Notes: generated by a model not told the origin, from the sequence alone. 64,000 nucleotides of DNA from Escherichia coli (GCF_048403405.1 NZ_CP183129.1); one strand, 5' to 3'; positions 20,406 through 31,527 are shown, counted from the stretch's first letter. Program-made: numbers and translations.

Positions 20406-21113
20406 CTATATATACTTCCTTTTTACTCTACTTAATTCTATCACTGATGAGGAGTGACAAAATGACAAATTAATAGTATCGATATAATCCAAAATTTGAC
20501 TCTCAACCTCAATAAAAATATTTTTGGGCCCATTACTAATCGATATACCGATTTCATCCAAAACAGCCATCATTTTTCTCTGATGAGTTTTATATTTATA
20601 GTCTTTATTTTCCTCTGTAATATGTGCATTGGCTTCCTCAATAACACATTTGATTCTAGATATTATTTCTAGATAATCTCTCGAAACAGATATATCACCG
20701 CCTTGCGCTTCAGGGAACATAACCCTATACCATCTAAAAAAATTAACTTTCTCTGGATAGATGCTACTTCTTTTAGTTAACTCAGCACTTGCAAATTCTC
20801 TAAACATCGTCAGATGACTAGTGTAATTACTATTATTATTATTTTTAACTCCAGCGTTATATGTCATCAAAGCAATCATAACACCAAAAACGGTAACAAA
20901 AGTTGTTATAAGCCATCCAAACGCCTGAAAATACATTACTATACCAGATGTTTTTTCCGCAAAAAATTTTAAGCACTGGCTATCGAAGCATATATCACGC
21001 TCATATAGCTTTTCATTCTGAATAGTTTCAAAAAGAGAAATTAGCGAAAAAATCAAAAAAAGAGCTGACGACACACCGACAATATATTTGAGAAGTCTAA
21101 TATTTGCATTCAT
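20406..21113 (-). CDS. Cargo protein with two N-terminal transmembrane helices, translationally coupled to the upstream reverse transcriptase; candidate effector
   Basis: ATG at 21113 overlaps RT stop (ATGA); 235 aa; hydrophobic segments IVGVSSALFLIFSLISLF and GIVMYFQAFGWLITTFVTVFGVMIALMTY; AT-rich by eye. Confidence 0.65.
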   Translation of the reverse strand: MNANIRLLKYIVGVSSALFLIFSLISLFETIQNEKLYERDICFDSQCLKFFAEKTSGIVMYFQAFGWLITTFVTVFGVMIALMTYNAGVKNNNNSNYTSHLTMFREFASAELTKRSSIYPEKVNFFRWYRVMFPEAQGGDISVSRDYLEIISRIKCVIEEANAHITEENKDYKYKTHQRKMMAVLDEIGISISNGPKNIFIEVESQILDYIDTINLSFCHSSSVIELSRVKRKYI

Positions 21114-22336
21114 AATGGTTTTAAAGATGCCAATCTAGATTTAAAACACTCCAGTTTTTCTTTAAATGATTCAGAGCGAGTAAGAATAATCATCTTATAT
21201 CTCGTCAAATCATATTTTCTTTTATACCAATGTTTATTTTGATTACCTTTCGAATACGACAACTCTAAACTTTTTATAGCTGCATCAATCACAGCAACAT
21301 CTCTTTTAGATGGCATCGGTTTTATTGCCTGCAACTGTTTCTTGAATGATTCATATTTTTCATGCCCAACACGGCCAAGCTTATTCACTCTCCCCATACA
21401 TCTATTGAATTCTTTTCTGTATGCAACACTTGTTTTTGTGTTATTTTTTGCCGCCAGTAATTTCAAATTATGTATAGATGCCCTGATTCTTTTGACTTCA
21501 TCGGATGGTAGTCGAGGTGAGTCATAGTCAACTCTTAAACCATGTACTTTTATAGGTTCAGATGAACAGTGAAATATTTTTGTTTTGTGCTTATTTATCG
21601 GCAAGTCATGCTCAGAAAGCATCCTCTCTATATGGCTTTGCATTTGAGAAAAATCATAATTACTTATTTTAGATGACACGGTAATATCATCTACCAAACG
21701 CGTATAAACAAGTCCTTTCCTCTGCGCACGTCTTACCACATCCCCTTCAACAGCGAATAAACACAAAGTTGCTATATAGCTTGATGTTAAGGCCCCCTGT
21801 ACGACAAAATCATCCTTAGTACATATATCCACCAAGTATTCAAGAGCCTCATCCTTAATATGCAATATCTCCTCAAACACGCTCCTAACCAGATCTCTAT
21901 GGATATTATCGAAAAAATTACTTATATCCACCTTGAGAACTGTTTTTGCTCCACAATGAGCCTTTGCACATGAAACATAGTCACGTTTGACATTAGAATT
22001 TAAAACATCATTTTTACTGGGAACTGAACCAAACAAAAATGAAGGAAAAACAACCAATTCCTTAAAAATACGTTTATTAATTCTACTCTGTAATAATCTC
22101 ATTTTAGGATGTAGGGAGTAGACAATCCGTTTGCTTCCGTCAATTTTGGGAATTTCTTTTAGAGTATATTTCTCATCTAATGATAATTCTGCAATAGCTT
22201 TAAGCTCTTCAACAGAAATCGATAAAGCCTTTGACAACTTTTCAAGTGTTGTGATAGGAGCATTGGATTTGCTGTATGGTTTAAATTTATCCATAAACAT
22301 ACCATTCAAATTCAAAGTTACGTACGGTCTTCCCAT
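21110..22336 (-). CDS. Reverse transcriptase (retron-like or Abi-type), defence-associated candidate
   Basis: RT motifs in the translation: IPKIDGSKRIVY (fingers), VLKVDISNFFDNI (motif A), QGALTSSYIA (motif B-like), YTRLVDDITVSS (YxDD; DNA ~21671-21706), and KVHGLRVDYD resembling the retron VTG region. Start uncertain: ATG candidates at 22336, 22300, 22294; the supplied ORF extends to a TTG at 22384. Confidence 0.8.
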   Translation of the reverse strand: MGRPYVTLNLNGMFMDKFKPYSKSNAPITTLEKLSKALSISVEELKAIAELSLDEKYTLKEIPKIDGSKRIVYSLHPKMRLLQSRINKRIFKELVVFPSFLFGSVPSKNDVLNSNVKRDYVSCAKAHCGAKTVLKVDISNFFDNIHRDLVRSVFEEILHIKDEALEYLVDICTKDDFVVQGALTSSYIATLCLFAVEGDVVRRAQRKGLVYTRLVDDITVSSKISNYDFSQMQSHIERMLSEHDLPINKHKTKIFHCSSEPIKVHGLRVDYDSPRLPSDEVKRIRASIHNLKLLAAKNNTKTSVAYRKEFNRCMGRVNKLGRVGHEKYESFKKQLQAIKPMPSKRDVAVIDAAIKSLELSYSKGNQNKHWYKRKYDLTRYKMIILTRSESFKEKLECFKSRLASLKPL

Positions 22337-22625
22337 ACTCAAGGGTGGAACAGCAGAGATGCTTACATCAACAATTGTCAGCAACAGCCTCTGCTATCTT
22401 TCGACCGTACGTAATGTCGTCGGCTACGGCACCATCGTAGTTGACGACGGTGGGGCCTCGCTGATAGGTCCATAGTGGACGCTTTTTTGTAAAAGCAAAA
22501 ACTGACAATTTAATGTTGTTGACTGCCGCATACCAAGCGAATCGCTGGTGCGCTAAGAATAATGCAACAAAAAAATAAGAATTTCAACCGGGTAACTGCA
22601 AGCCAGCGACATCGTTTAGCGCGCA

Positions 22626-22644
22626 GTGCTTTCCCCGCCTCGCC
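22626..22644 (-). other. cos: cos cohesive-end site (19 nt, GGCGAGGCGGGGAAAGCAC on the minus strand)
   Basis: Exact match to the P2 cohesive-end sequence as remembered; embedded in a locally GC-rich noncoding stretch between the RT gene and the 612-aa gene. Confidence 0.75.
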
Positions 22645-22805: not shown

Positions 22806-24644
22806 TTAATCAGCCAGATAAGGTTCAACTTTATCTTCCCATACACTAAATAAAGGCAAACAAGTTAAATAAAAGATAAAGACACAGGCAAAAACTGAAG
22901 TTGGTTGATAACAATGATTTACAGTATACCTGCCATGAGCCATCGTGTGTCTAATTGCAGCACCACCTTTCATATTGAACAATAAATCCATAGTCAATAC
23001 ATGATCACTATCAAAAACACCTTCCATTTCACTCCTATAATTTGCAAGCATTTGAGATAGGCTAGTAGCCTCCTCAAAAAGCGACACATCTATTTTCGTT
23101 GTTTCTTTTCTTCTTAATTCTAAAATCCATCTAATTGAATTCTCCAATTGCGGCAATAACAAATAACAGGCAGACACATAATCTCCCTGCCAAAGCTTAT
23201 AAAACCCCAAAGAAAATATTTCTGCATACCCAGGTGGAACAAATGCACTTTGTTGTGAGATTGGGTCAAATGTATTTTCATTTAATGAATACCTAGCCAA
23301 CACACTTTGCCTAACGACTTCAAACTCACCACAAACATAGACCTGATGCTCAATGTTACTAGTTCTTAAATAATTTGCACAAGCATCATTTAAACTTATA
23401 TCCCCCGCAGGATCCAAAGGTGAACGACTTGCTACAACGCGCCCTCTATCATCATAAACAACCGTTTCACTCATATTAAGAAAAAAATGTTTTTTAGCAT
23501 CGGAACGAGCTCTTTCCATAATTTCACTGGCACTTACAATCTTAAATCTAGCAATTAAAGTTTTAATTACCCTTGAGAAATCCAATTGATTATAAACATG
23601 CTCTTTCTGAGCGATAACATCACTAAGATCCATTGGTATTGCAAAGAAGTGCATTTCATCATTGATTTGATCTCGAATAGAATTCAATTCCTCTCTAATC
23701 TTTTTAATTTCTTCATTCATTCCACCAATTGCTCTAAATTCGCCAAGAGCAACTCTTAACCAATGAGCCTTCAATATTGAAGATGAAGACTGTTCAAATT
23801 GAGCCAATGTTATTTCTGACGCTTTAATTCTGCACCGTCTTCCTTGCTCTTCCATATCGTTTTTAACATATAATTCAGACGCAAAATAAAACAATTTTTT
23901 CACTGCATCAAAATAAGACGCTCCACAATGCTCATCAGCTATCTTTTCTGCATTCTCAGCCAATTGCAAGGGACACAATAAATTATTCTTATAAAGAATT
24001 TCAGAAACTCTTAATACACCGGTGAATATACCAGAGTCTATTAATACATGATATAACCTTAATGTCGAATCAACTATCCCCCCTTGTAGTTGTTTTTTCC
24101 TGCCAATAAGCATGCGCGATATTGCGATACCTCTATCCAAGCAGTCAACAACATCAAAAATATGGATATCACCTGACTCTTGTTTTTCTATTAAAGTATC
24201 GCAAGCATCATTAACCATTAGAGAATATGACTCTATTGCTTTATTGGCAGAGTCTATATCCTTACGGTTATTTATCCATAAAACATCACACACCCTAGAT
24301 ATAATATAAGGATTATCGGAGTTTTCTTTAATACAAGTTAATATTGTTGAAAAACTCTCCTTATAATCTGAAGGCCTATAGCCCCTCTCAGGATAGAGAA
24401 TGATTTTTGGCTCAAAACCGATAATATCACCAGACCTAGAAAATTTAAAATTAAACAACGCACGTAATAAATAGCAAAGCCGCCAAGAACTTACATCGTT
24501 TTTTAGCTTGTAAGATGACAACAACTGAACAAAATAAGACTCCATATCAAAATGAGAATAACTTCTTGGCGATGATAATATACTGGCGTATTCACTTTTT
24601 TTAAAATCATCAACTGAAATAGAAAAAACATCAAACTCGCTCAT
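22806..24644 (-). CDS. Cargo protein of unknown function (612 aa) with C-terminal HEPN-like R-x4-H motif (AIRHTMAHGRY); candidate abortive-infection RNase
   Basis: ATG at 24644 with GGTGAGGA upstream; no P-loop seen; AT-rich by eye; occupies the P2 tin/old position between A and cos. The HEPN call rests on one short motif. Confidence 0.6.
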   Translation of the reverse strand: MSEFDVFSISVDDFKKSEYASILSSPRSYSHFDMESYFVQLLSSYKLKNDVSSWRLCYLLRALFNFKFSRSGDIIGFEPKIILYPERGYRPSDYKESFSTILTCIKENSDNPYIISRVCDVLWINNRKDIDSANKAIESYSLMVNDACDTLIEKQESGDIHIFDVVDCLDRGIAISRMLIGRKKQLQGGIVDSTLRLYHVLIDSGIFTGVLRVSEILYKNNLLCPLQLAENAEKIADEHCGASYFDAVKKLFYFASELYVKNDMEEQGRRCRIKASEITLAQFEQSSSSILKAHWLRVALGEFRAIGGMNEEIKKIREELNSIRDQINDEMHFFAIPMDLSDVIAQKEHVYNQLDFSRVIKTLIARFKIVSASEIMERARSDAKKHFFLNMSETVVYDDRGRVVASRSPLDPAGDISLNDACANYLRTSNIEHQVYVCGEFEVVRQSVLARYSLNENTFDPISQQSAFVPPGYAEIFSLGFYKLWQGDYVSACYLLLPQLENSIRWILELRRKETTKIDVSLFEEATSLSQMLANYRSEMEGVFDSDHVLTMDLLFNMKGGAAIRHTMAHGRYTVNHCYQPTSVFACVFIFYLTCLPLFSVWEDKVEPYLAD

Positions 24645-24797
24645 TCCTCACCTTTAAAGCACTTAACAAACAATCATGGTAAACAATACCAAACTGCAAG
24701 CAACGATTAAATACAGAAAACTCTTTCTGTCGAGATTTTTCAATAACACTAAATATATACAGTACGAAATTATCTAATATTGCGTGAATTTTTGCCA

Positions 24798-27083
24798 TTA
24801 TGTCCACTCCATTACTGTTGAGAATCCCGGCCACTCATCAATGACCGGATACGTGAATTTTTTCCCGCCATAATTTATGGTCGCTCCCCGAGCCAGCGCC
24901 TCAAGCTCCCATCGCTGTGGCCTGATACCGTTCTGAGCAAGGTCAACGCGGATACGGGTAATTTGCATTCGTTCCGACCGGGTCAGTCTGGCCGATGGCG
25001 CTATTTCATGCGGTTTTAACGGGCTTCCGTTTCTTTGCTGACGGTTTGGTCTTCTCAGACCGTGTTTTAATGCACCTCTGAGCGCCCTCACGACCTCCTG
25101 GTCATTCCATTCGATAACACCGTCATCTACCAGATTAAGCACTGCTACGGCGTGTTCAGAAGGCGTGGGAGCCGGTGACGAAGTATCACCACCGGTGAGC
25201 TTTCCACAGTTATTGACAGGACTCCGAGGCGCGGCGATGCCGCTTTTTAAAGTCAACGGCTCAACGACCGGAACTTTCGGCACAATGCGCCAGTCCGTCG
25301 TTCTGGTGATATGAATATGACGCGTGCCGAGATGCGGCGCGTAAATGCCGACCACTCTCTCGACTTCTTCCTCGTACTCGTTAACGTCATCCGACGGGCT
25401 ACGGGCGACCCTGACAGTCTGACAATCGCGCGGGACATTTGCCCCGCCCTGCGCGCTGATATACAACGCAAAATCACCACTGTCTGCGGCGGCGCGTGCA
25501 GCCTCGACGCGTTCGTCAAACTCATCAGCAATGCTGACGCCGCGAGGCAATTTGCGTAGTTCACGGTAAGCCCCCATTGTCGGCAGGCCAACCGTTTTAA
25601 ATTGCGGGATACGCCACGTTGACGCCCATGCGGTAACAGCCGCTGCAGTGTCTTTCAGCGGCCTGCCGGTATCGTTATCGAGCTGACCATCCAGTGCATA
25701 GCCGTCGATATTTTTTGAGATGTATTTCGCGATATATCCCGCAGCACCGCCCCGGTTAAGGTGTTTCGCCTGAAAACGGTTTCGCGCGGCTCCTCTTTCG
25801 TCGCCATCCTCTTTGAGCGCATAGCGACGCATGATTTCGATAATCTGGTTACGCTGGCGTGGATTACAAAAAAGCATCATATGCCAGTGCGGCGTTCCGT
25901 CGTGGTGTGGCTCGACGACTCGCAAACCGTAGACCTGTAAATCATTATCCTTGAATGCCGTGCGCATCAGGCTCCAGATACGGCAGAGATAACGCTGCGC
26001 ATCCTTCGGATTAAATGCCTCATCATTCCAGCCGTGATTAAGCTGCACGGTTTTACTTTCTCCTTTTCCGACCTGACGTGTCGGGTGATACTTTGACGGC
26101 GCGGTCAGCGTGATAAACATCCCCACATCACCCTCTGCGGCGGCGTAACGCTCAATACCGGCGATGGTGTTCATCAGCTCCATCCGGCGAATTTCAGGAT
26201 TAGAAATACTGCCCATCACCTTACTGATAAGGTCGATGCGCTCGCCGGTTTCCCTGTTTTCGAGGTCACACGATTTAAGAAATTCCAGATTTGCCTGGCG
26301 GCGTGCACGCACATCACGAATGGCGTGTTTACTGGCATAAGGAGAACGATCTTTATTGACCTCCCCGACAGCAATCAGTAACGCCTCATGCCAGCGCATA
26401 CGCTGGCCTTTAAGCTGATGAGTCCACCACTCATCGTTAAACAGGCGGGCAATGGCAGAATATGCCTGCCTCGTGGTCATCTGTCCTTTACGGTATTTTT
26501 TCCAGTAGAGCGGGGAAATATTGAAAGCACGTGCAGCGCCAGCAACATGACTATACAGGTGAGCCTGCGCCTCATCCGTAAACAGCGATTCTTTTTCGCC
26601 ATGCGCATCCACCCAGGCATCGCTGAGTTCCTCATACATCATGAAAAGCTGCGATGAGATACGGGCGGCAAACTTTTTCAGCTCCTTGTCATTCATTCCA
26701 GGCAGGCGCGCATAGTGGTCACGCTCTGCCAGAAACAGCAACGACGCGTCGGTGTTCATTTCATGGCGCTGATTCACGCGCTCAATGCGCGGCCATAAAC
26801 GACGCTGAAAAGTGGATGTGAGGAAATAAAACCCGTGTACCGGGCTTTTATTGCGCCGGATGTAGTCATAGCGTGAAGTAAACAGCGAGCGCAAAAAGTA
26901 AGGCAGGCGGTTAATCGTGGATAAAACCCCTTGCACCTGACGCATCTCGTCACGTGTAAGGGGTCTTTCGCGCCCGACGGCCTCGCGTGGCGCGTTCCAT
27001 GCATAAGCACCGGTAAACGTCTTACCGGTGCCTGCGGCAAATGCTGACGGAGGGACAAAACGCCCGGAGGCTTTAACGGCCAT
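24798..27083 (-). CDS. A: Replication initiation protein gpA (rolling-circle nickase)
   Basis: ATG at 27083 (MAVKASGRFVPPSAFAAGTGK...), 761 aa; the supplied ORF extends to an upstream TTG. Confidence 0.9.
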   Translation of the reverse strand: MAVKASGRFVPPSAFAAGTGKTFTGAYAWNAPREAVGRERPLTRDEMRQVQGVLSTINRLPYFLRSLFTSRYDYIRRNKSPVHGFYFLTSTFQRRLWPRIERVNQRHEMNTDASLLFLAERDHYARLPGMNDKELKKFAARISSQLFMMYEELSDAWVDAHGEKESLFTDEAQAHLYSHVAGAARAFNISPLYWKKYRKGQMTTRQAYSAIARLFNDEWWTHQLKGQRMRWHEALLIAVGEVNKDRSPYASKHAIRDVRARRQANLEFLKSCDLENRETGERIDLISKVMGSISNPEIRRMELMNTIAGIERYAAAEGDVGMFITLTAPSKYHPTRQVGKGESKTVQLNHGWNDEAFNPKDAQRYLCRIWSLMRTAFKDNDLQVYGLRVVEPHHDGTPHWHMMLFCNPRQRNQIIEIMRRYALKEDGDERGAARNRFQAKHLNRGGAAGYIAKYISKNIDGYALDGQLDNDTGRPLKDTAAAVTAWASTWRIPQFKTVGLPTMGAYRELRKLPRGVSIADEFDERVEAARAAADSGDFALYISAQGGANVPRDCQTVRVARSPSDDVNEYEEEVERVVGIYAPHLGTRHIHITRTTDWRIVPKVPVVEPLTLKSGIAAPRSPVNNCGKLTGGDTSSPAPTPSEHAVAVLNLVDDGVIEWNDQEVVRALRGALKHGLRRPNRQQRNGSPLKPHEIAPSARLTRSERMQITRIRVDLAQNGIRPQRWELEALARGATINYGGKKFTYPVIDEWPGFSTVMEWT

Positions 27084-29702: not shown

Positions 29703-30698
29703 ATGTCTATTAAAAAGCTCGATGATGGTCGTTATGAAGTGGACGTCAGACCGCAGGGTGCAGATGGAAAACGTATCAGGCGGAAATTTAAAACTAAAGG
29801 TGAAGCTCAAGCATTCGAACGTCATGTGCTGGTTAACTACCACAACAAAGAGTGGCTGGAGAAGCCAGCCGACCGCCGAACTCTTACAGAGTTGTTAGGC
29901 AGATGGTGGATATATCACGGAAAATCACATGAGCGTGGAAATATTGAACGGGGGCGTTTGACGACAATAATCGCCAAATTTGCAGAAATGGGGGTGTCCA
30001 GAGCTGACCAGTTAACAAAGAAAACGATAACTGATTATCGAGTTGTAATGATGAACGATGGTCTAAAACCAGCCAGCGTAAATCGGCATCTGGCAATAAT
30101 GAGCGGGATGTTCACCAAGTTAATTGACGCCGGTGAATACCACTCTCACAACCCGTTCCGTGAGGTTAAGCGGTTACGTGAAGCTGTTACAGAAATGGCT
30201 TTTTTGTCCAGTGAAGAGATTACGCGGCTGTTATCCATGCTTGATGGTGATGAGTTAAATGCAACTCTGGTCTGCCTTTCTACTGGTGGACGCTGGAGTG
30301 AAGTGTCTAATTTGAAAGCTGAACACATCATTAACCAGATGGTTACGTTTATGAAAACTAAAAACGGAAAGCGCAGGACAATTCCCGTTTCGCAGGACCT
30401 GATTAAAAGGATCAAGACCAAAAATTCAGGCAGGCTTTTTAATGCCAGTTACTACAAAGTGCGTAACGCTCTCAGGGAAGTAAAACCCGATTTACCTGAC
30501 GGACAAGCAGTACATGTTTTGAGGCATACATTTGCCACACATTTTATAATGAATGGAGGTAACATAATCACATTGCAGCGCATCCTGGGTCATTCTAACA
30601 TTCAGCAAACTATGACCTACGCACACTTTGCACCGGATTTCTTACAAGATGCTGTGACTCTTAACCCGGTGTCAGGAATGTCCATAATGCGTCCATAA
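29703..30698 (+). CDS. int: Tyrosine integrase (P2 Int family)
   Basis: 331 aa; MSIKKLDDGRYEVDVRP..., HxxR and C-terminal catalytic region (LRHTFATHF...GHSNIQQTMTYAHF); last prophage gene before the host junction. Confidence 0.9.
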   Translation: MSIKKLDDGRYEVDVRPQGADGKRIRRKFKTKGEAQAFERHVLVNYHNKEWLEKPADRRTLTELLGRWWIYHGKSHERGNIERGRLTTIIAKFAEMGVSRADQLTKKTITDYRVVMMNDGLKPASVNRHLAIMSGMFTKLIDAGEYHSHNPFREVKRLREAVTEMAFLSSEEITRLLSMLDGDELNATLVCLSTGGRWSEVSNLKAEHIINQMVTFMKTKNGKRRTIPVSQDLIKRIKTKNSGRLFNASYYKVRNALREVKPDLPDGQAVHVLRHTFATHFIMNGGNIITLQRILGHSNIQQTMTYAHFAPDFLQDAVTLNPVSGMSIMRP

Positions 30699-30729: not shown

Positions 30730-31527
30730 ATGAGTAATTTAACTAATTGTAATACAACAGAAAATACCGCTACGGCGGGGGCTACCAAGTCAGTTATTGG
30801 TCGCATTCACTCCTTTGAATCCTGTGGAACCGTAGACGGCCCGGGTATTCGCTTTATCACCTTTTTCCAGGGCTGCCTGATGCGCTGCCTGTATTGTCAT
30901 AACCGCGACACCTGGGACACGCATGGCGGTAAAGAAGTTACCGTTGAAGATTTAATGAAAGAGGTGGTGACCTATCGCCACTTTATGAACGCTTCCGGCG
31001 GCGGCGTTACCGCATCCGGCGGTGAAGCAATCCTGCAAGCTGAGTTTGTTCGTGACTGGTTCCGCGCCTGCAAAAAAGAAGGCATTCATACCTGTCTGGA
31101 CACCAACGGTTTTGTTCGTCGTTACGATCCGGTGATTGATGAACTGCTGGAAGTAACCGACCTGGTAATGCTCGATCTCAAACAGATGAACGACGAGATC
31201 CACCAAAATCTGGTTGGAGTTTCAAACCACCGCACGCTGGAGTTCGCCAAATATCTGGCGAACAAAAATGTGAAGGTGTGGATCCGCTACGTTGTTGTCC
31301 CAGGCTGGTCTGACGATGACGATTCAGCGCATCGCCTCGGTGAATTTACCCGTGATATGGGCAACGTTGAGAAAATCGAGCTTCTCCCCTACCACGAACT
31401 TGGCAAACACAAATGGGTGGCGATGGGTGAAGAATACAAACTTGATGGTGTTAAACCACCGAAGAAAGAGACCATGGAACGCGTGAAAGGCATTCTTGAG
31501 CAGTACGGTCATAAGGTAATGTTCTAA
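30730..31527 (+). CDS. pflA: Pyruvate formate-lyase activating enzyme, with prophage-junction-derived N-terminal extension
   Basis: From residue 21 ([22 protein letters not shown]..., radical-SAM CxxxCxxC) it matches E. coli PflA as remembered; the canonical ATG is AAG here and the frame opens at an upstream ATG (30730). Confidence 0.9.

Follow-up and report, generated by a model that had tools for sequence, protein, structure and literature searches.

A 55-codon reading frame between gene A and a DUF7380 gene in a P2-like prophage of Escherichia coli: a chimeric junction that is probably leader rather than gene

A stretch of 64,000 nucleotides (nt) of Escherichia coli DNA (GCF_048403405.1, NZ_CP183129.1; the whole stretch is referred to here as the window) contains a P2-like prophage in which a 55-codon open reading frame (ORF) spans the interval between gene A, which encodes a P2-type replication endonuclease, and ORF612, which encodes a 612-amino-acid DUF7380 protein. 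Is this frame a gene, or a piece of leader that is open to translation? A preliminary description of the locus raised both possibilities: a small gene at the position of P2 orf91, translationally coupled between its neighbours, and a leader region. The chimeric 55-codon ORF (24631..24798, minus strand) runs from an ATG at 24798-24796 to a TGA at 24633-24631 and encodes MAKIHAILDNFVLYIFSVIEKSRQKEFSVFNRCLQFGIVYHDCLLSALKVRNERV. Its geometry is as first described: the ATG overlaps the TAA of gene A (24800-24798) in the form TAATG on the minus strand, and the frame ends 14 nt inside ORF612, whose ATG is at 24644. The mechanical ORF list contains the same frame as a 67-amino-acid ORF with a GTG start inside A (24631..24834).

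The frame is chimeric and is not conserved. We consider it probable that it is an incidental junction ORF lying in a leader, with a peptide that is not selected. As a finding it is most likely an ordinary one: the scar of a recombination event joined to a leader, which ribosomes may translate but which is not under selection as a protein.

A chimeric junction at the start of orf91

The prophage in the window is a P2-like prophage of E. coli whose cargo occupies the variable region between gpA and gpQ, the anti-phage hotspot of P2-like phages (Rousset et al. 2022, PMC9122126), where cassettes are handled gene by gene and no description of junction ORFs was found. The cargo, comprising ORF612 and, beyond cos, an Ec48-type retron, lies at exactly this locus with the 55-codon frame on its A-proximal junction; it differs from other cargo types in that the junction falls inside orf91 rather than inside the 3' end of A. 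A variable region between genes A and Q of P2-like phages was reportedly noted by Odegrip et al. in 2006.

The assignment of the frame to the orf91 position proved to be literally correct, for its Shine-Dalgarno sequence (SD), ATG and first codons are the start of orf91 itself. Window DNA is identical to P2 through ATGGCAAAAATTCACG (24798-24783, minus strand), a 5' stub of orf91 (DUF3850) that codes for MAKIH plus the first base of codon 6, and is unrelated to P2 afterwards; so the SD (GGAG, 24807..24810, minus strand, 8 nt upstream of the ATG at 24798), the ATG and codons 1-5 or 6 of the frame are the translation-initiation region of orf91, and the other 49 codons are from the ORF612 cassette. 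Homology to orf91 ends at 16 nt in the window type of the locus and 2 nt later in a second allele, the E308 type. P2 orf91 likewise follows A, starts within the A stop, has the same GGAG and has MAKIH(E) among its first residues (its product begins MMAKIHEVKLH...), but the overlap with the A stop reads ATGA in P2 and TAATG in the window, and only 16-18 nt are shared, the remaining 49 codons having no detectable DNA or profile similarity to DUF3850.

Comparison with other prophages indicates where such joins are made. Among 80 P2-like loci collected with the C-terminus of A as query, most have the context ATGGAGTGGACAT(G/A)ATGG upstream of orf91, as P2 does, and most run on into full-length orf91 (ATGGCAAAAATTCACGAGGTAAAG...); a stub followed by foreign DNA was found only in the DUF7380 loci. 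With other cargo types the join falls slightly before this point, a few codons back within the 3' end of A, and gives A proteins that terminate in ...PGFSTNI, ...PGFWHQFE, ...GFTTVID or ...DEWSWFYCYSEQ. Cargo break points are clustered in the closing codons of A or the opening codons of orf91. Across the A stop of the window, GC content changes from ~0.55 in A to ~0.30 beyond. The locus shows a cargo swap at the P2 A-Q hotspot at base-pair resolution, and how live start signals can end up on foreign leaders.

Cargo exchange also diversifies the end of gene A: at least nine alternative C-terminal tails were counted among 89 P2-like loci examined. In loci L018-L026 the junction lies inside A, 8 codons before the stop (equivalent to about 24825 in the window), and converts the terminal ...DEWPGFSTVMEWT to ...DEWSWFYCYSEQ; in loci L050, L065 and L094, A has lost its usual stop codon and runs on for 7 further codons (...MEWT[S/L]WQKFTR before the stop), crossing the orf91 start.

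We propose that recombination at the A-Q variable region joined foreign cargo to the early operon but kept the orf91 initiation region, so that GGAG, ATG and five or six orf91 codons would have been fused to the AT-rich leader of an ORF612 (DUF7380/PDC-S39) cassette. The leader's own task would be to supply ORF612 with a promoter, a 5' untranslated region and an SD. Because the orf91 start signals are intact, re-initiation at 24798 may well occur: ribosomes finishing A on early-operon mRNA may start again there, would then cross the leader and would stop 11 nt past the ATG of ORF612, yielding a peptide that is presumably without selection and without function of its own.

Alleles of the frame and its coding signals

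A homologue search of the frame against 5.8 billion predicted proteins retrieved three entries, namely the 55-amino-acid peptide, a 67-amino-acid GTG-start version with A2S, and a 60-amino-acid call of the E308 type, all from the same locus type. The E308 type, found in six complete genomes, has an ORF612 with 88% amino-acid identity to that of the window and a frame of 48 amino acids from the ATG. It lacks a 42-nt segment (14 of the 55 codons, 18-31; 24707..24748, minus strand) that is bounded by TATTTA direct repeats at 24755-24750 and 24713-24708; since some of the segment survives in a more distant locus, L016, the aligned leaders mark the E308 type as a deletion derivative. It also lacks the TGA (TTTGA to TTCGA), which extends the frame by 7 codons to end 35 nt inside ORF612, and it differs by A6E, N10S, R32C, C33Y, Y41C and D43G plus one synonymous change. 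With two minor variants (F27L together with N52D; A2S), changed codons total 9 nonsynonymous and 1 synonymous, plus the stop loss. In this small sample the ratio is compatible with neutrality (P=0.23) and does not fit constraint like that on ORF612 (P=0.014), for which 68 of 141 changed codons are synonymous; that 11 substitutions create no new stop is expected 60% of the time. The substitution pattern in the frame is neutral.

Locus L016 belongs to a peduovirus whose A has ~77% DNA identity to known P2-like phages and whose ORF612 homologue has 77% amino-acid identity to that of the window. Its leader is shared with the window over the proximal 93 nt only (24645-24737; 72 matches, 21 mismatches, 4 gap columns), with 30 of 60 positions identical (50%) upstream of 24737. 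An ATG does overlap the A stop of L016, but its frame is just 2 codons long, and the equivalent of the 55-codon frame has a TAA in place of Tyr41. The preliminary description had held that stops or indels in closely related loci would count against a gene; the frame is kept open in the two closest alleles, and with a TAA and a missing start in L016 it is therefore broken at that distance. Nine loci in the same hotspot (L018-L026) carry DUF7380 homologues of 33% identity, and their ~120-nt leaders contain no ORF of 45 or more amino acids between A and the DUF7380 gene.

The window allele itself is uniform and narrowly distributed. The leader is present in 20 of 5,426 complete E. coli genomes, and an unaltered frame occurs in no fewer than 13 complete E. 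coli genomes and 576 contigs; this near-identity reflects recent spread of one prophage, not constraint. A pattern scan of genome contigs gave no further leader alleles, only two of 56 matches in a metagenome pattern scan were real (L120 and L141, both identical to the window), and phage P2-EC46 was the only match to the leader in the phage collection.

Coding signals were also sought in the frame. In codon usage, codons 7-51 score no differently from composition-matched shuffles (P=0.25) and fall in the bottom 2% of true in-frame windows of three neighbouring AT-rich cargo genes, and a second reading frame scores equally well. A coding-like signal from a comparison of in-frame with off-frame usage was discarded, as two frames scored high under that poor null and the composition null removed the signal. 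No match to the 55-amino-acid peptide was found in Pfam, NCBIfam or PADLOC, and none to its structural model in the Protein Data Bank or viral structure libraries. Accordingly, the proposal of a real, translationally coupled gene is unsupported, the frame being broken in L016, without a family beyond two alleles, neutral in its changes and shuffle-like in its codon usage; more support goes to the alternative offered alongside it, namely that the region is a leader and not a gene.

Competing readings of the open frame

Several observations weigh against an incidental origin. The frame has a good SD (GGAG at 24810-24807) and its start overlaps the stop of A (TAATG at 24800-24796), which is the arrangement that translational coupling calls for. 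The frame is also long: when the ATG was held fixed and the downstream DNA shuffled with dinucleotides preserved, 1.3% of trials gave an open run of 55 or more codons, the median run being 10 codons. At P ~0.013 for this base composition the length, which had been called only mildly surprising, is therefore more than that for one pre-specified start, although it is unsurprising as a pick from a 64-kb scan; a frame of this length follows 1 of the 70 ATGs on the antisense strand of that AT-rich cargo. The sole indel between the two ATG-bearing alleles (42 nt) lies in frame, both alleles stop shortly after ORF612 begins, 14 nt and 35 nt into it, and the comparative tests have low power because there are only three leader alleles (n=3). 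No promoter in the leader scores convincingly in either of two scans. The AlphaFold2 single-sequence model has three helices with a mean predicted local distance difference test score (pLDDT) of 76.5 and a predicted template modelling score (pTM) of 0.51, against 63.9 and 0.25 for one composition-matched shuffle, the single control; this is mild evidence, from modelling, that the peptide could fold.

Gene callers, moreover, do call the frame: as E1470_c21710 in ECC-1470, as the hypothetical protein WP_171839694.1 in RefSeq (in 1 of the 20 leader-bearing genomes), and as phrog_37811, a tiny PHROGs family of unknown function whose 55-position profile is of this same sequence. All three rest on gene calls in near-identical prophages only. 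In the record of phage P2-EC46 from ECOR46 (AM157366), which matches the window at 100% identity across the leader and the beginning of ORF612, the depositors' annotation covers ORF612 with its ribosome-binding site and leaves out the 55-codon frame; a literature search on DUF7380, PDC-S39 and ORF612 found nothing on this gene or its leader. For annotation, the value of the locus is as a case of a junction artefact propagated in databases as a 55-amino-acid 'hypothetical protein'.

Translationally coupled, overlapping gene pairs and upstream leader ORFs are general mechanisms in bacteria. The TAATG overlap and a stop 11 nt downstream of the ORF612 ATG resemble such pairs, and to judge by their spacing would be compatible with termination and re-initiation; related DUF7380 cassettes differ in having no such arrangement. 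It is conceivable, if rather unlikely, that translation of the frame is itself selected, the retained orf91 start having been co-opted to couple ORF612 to the early operon or to shield the leader from Rho, with defence boosted at prophage induction. Passage of ribosomes would prevent Rho-dependent polarity, deliver them to the start of ORF612 and link its synthesis to early-operon transcription, keeping the frame open and its stop near the ORF612 ATG and leaving the amino acids unconstrained. The neutral amino-acid changes are what this explanation predicts, and the intact SD and overlap, the improbably open frame, the in-frame deletion and the paired stop positions also suit it, as does the result that no intrinsic terminator is predicted between A and ORF612 on the coding strand. 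However, the ORF drew attention through its very openness, a selection that inflates the P value; one deletion in three would be in frame by chance; the stop position differs between the alleles; and L016 and the homologues of 33% identity express the DUF7380 gene without such an ORF. A defence gene of a lysogen would be needed while the early promoter is repressed, with no obvious benefit from coupling to A; the P2 genes old and tin have their own mapped transcript starts. If true, this would be a small, tidy case in which the scar left by recombination had been put to use in regulating a defence gene.

Selection on the peptide is less probable still. A genuine three-helix protein of 55 amino acids, serving this lineage as an accessory or regulatory partner of ORF612 or else newly arisen as a gene at the orf91 start, would be consistent with the AlphaFold2 scores, the good translation signals, the improbable length and the unchanged state of the frame across genomes and contigs, but we hold it to be improbable: the E308 deletion (residues 18-31) takes out the last part of helix 1 of the model, the loop after it and the greater part of helix 2, and the C-terminus of that allele is altered, 9 changed codons are nonsynonymous against 1 synonymous, codon usage is like that of non-coding DNA, the frame is interrupted or absent in L016 and absent from other DUF7380 cassettes, neither homologue nor fold match exists among the databases searched, and identity across genomes is recent prophage spread. 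Least probable, and very doubtful, is that the open frame is the fossil of a longer piece of orf91 (DUF3850) now in decay. Its support is a collinear BLASTP alignment to P2 Orf91 (12 of 37 identities, pairwise E 0.008) with E-F-x3-[DN]-R-x4-G in register; whole-peptide homology was rejected, however, since this E value is owed to the MAKIH stub and without the stub P=0.11, and local alignment of the DNA beyond the stub to orf91 is no better than shuffles (P above 0.7). Neither the 55- nor the 48-amino-acid allele has a Pfam DUF3850/ASCH match even at E up to 10, whereas P2 Orf91 (1e-16) and an E. coli homologue (6.5e-18) were recovered in the same run; a word-indexed search for diverse DUF3850 proteins from which to build a profile yielded close E. 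coli relatives only. In addition, the GC content of the leader is 30%, and a phage with a different A gene carries part of this leader along with its ORF612 cassette.

The leader of ORF612 and the surrounding prophage

Positions 24645-24797 most likely make up the leader of the ORF612 cassette. Its proximal part (24645..24737, minus strand) is 77% identical to the leader of L016, with unrelated DNA further upstream, and it travels with ORF612 independently of the phage backbone, the A gene and A-proximal DNA of L016 being different. It presumably holds the promoter and 5' untranslated region of ORF612. One block, GTTTGGTATTGTTT, is invariant across the three leader alleles, and TGGTATTGT is conserved in 3 of 3. 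A weight-matrix scan gave a candidate sigma-70 promoter at 24676..24703 (minus strand; TTGCTT 24703-24698, 16-nt spacer, TACCAT 24681-24676) and, overlapping it, a candidate extended -10 element, TGG-TATTGT (24691-24683, minus strand); scores were ~4-7 bits, none outstanding, and a second promoter scan of the window sequence listed neither site, so a promoter of the leader's own is unproven. The best promoter-like site in any leader, TTGCTA-16-TATACT, is in the DUF7380 loci of 33% identity. The ORF612 SD is AGGTGA (24648..24653, minus strand), and AM157366 annotates a ribosome-binding site at the equivalent position.

The end of A in loci of the E308 type (L015, L003, L071) reads GGATATAATGG, with a perfect TATAAT and TTCTCA 16 nt upstream; this TATAAT overlaps the ATG of the small ORF, and a transcript from there would exclude that ATG. 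At 24763-24748 (minus strand) CTGTATATATTTAGTG is by eye similar to a LexA box (CTGT-N8-ACAG), reading CTGT-N8-AGTG with two mismatches in the second half; both alleles with the ATG have the site, and L016 does not. As RNA the leader folds with an energy no better than that of shuffles (z=0.08) and has no match in Rfam, and a small AU-rich hairpin in the 42-nt segment was dismissed as an RNA element, not being conserved in L016. A programmed +1 frameshift joining the peptide to ORF612 at GTT-TGA, as in prfB, was rejected by inspection: the SD-like element is 9 nt upstream instead of 3 nt, the E308 type has no TGA, and L016 has an upstream stop.

Gene A (24798..27083, minus strand, stop TAA at 24800-24798) is delimited by the ORF list, RefSeq annotation and alignment with gpA: identical loci in RefSeq carry a 2286-nt 'replication endonuclease' with the same end point, and the alignment of P2 gpA extends to the stop codon. 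ORF612 (22806..24644, minus strand, ATG at 24644) matches Pfam DUF7380 (PF24098) at E 1.9e-24 and the PADLOC candidate defence model PDC-S39 at E 2e-68, and is identical to ORF612 of phage P2-EC46. The early operon, with A as its last gene, is followed on the minus strand by ORF612, P2 cos and a type IV retron; the portal gene, which comes next, is on the opposite strand. An exact copy of the 19-nt cohesive-end sequence of P2, GGCGAGGCGGGGAAAGCAC, is at 22626-22644 (minus strand), between ORF612 and the retron, and therefore splits the A-Q variable region into an A side with ORF612 and a Q side with the retron.

The type IV (Ec48-like) retron extends over 20406-22600 (minus strand), with a reverse transcriptase (RT) gene from 21110 to ~22306 on that strand (PADLOC RT_IV, 8.5e-177), a gene for a two-transmembrane effector at 20406-21113 (2TM_IV match; NCBIfam 'retron Ec48 family effector membrane protein', 2.3e-67), and an msr/msd RNA presumed to lie at about 22400-22600, for which Rfam gave no match. 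ECC-1470 has an A-ORF612 junction identical to that of the window, but two small hypothetical genes in place of the retron. Beside the prophage integrase gene (29703-30698) lies a host gene (30730-31527, plus strand) for a radical S-adenosylmethionine activase, by eye like pyruvate formate-lyase activating enzyme; a pflA-like host gene adjoining the integrase suggests that the prophage attachment site is beside pflA.

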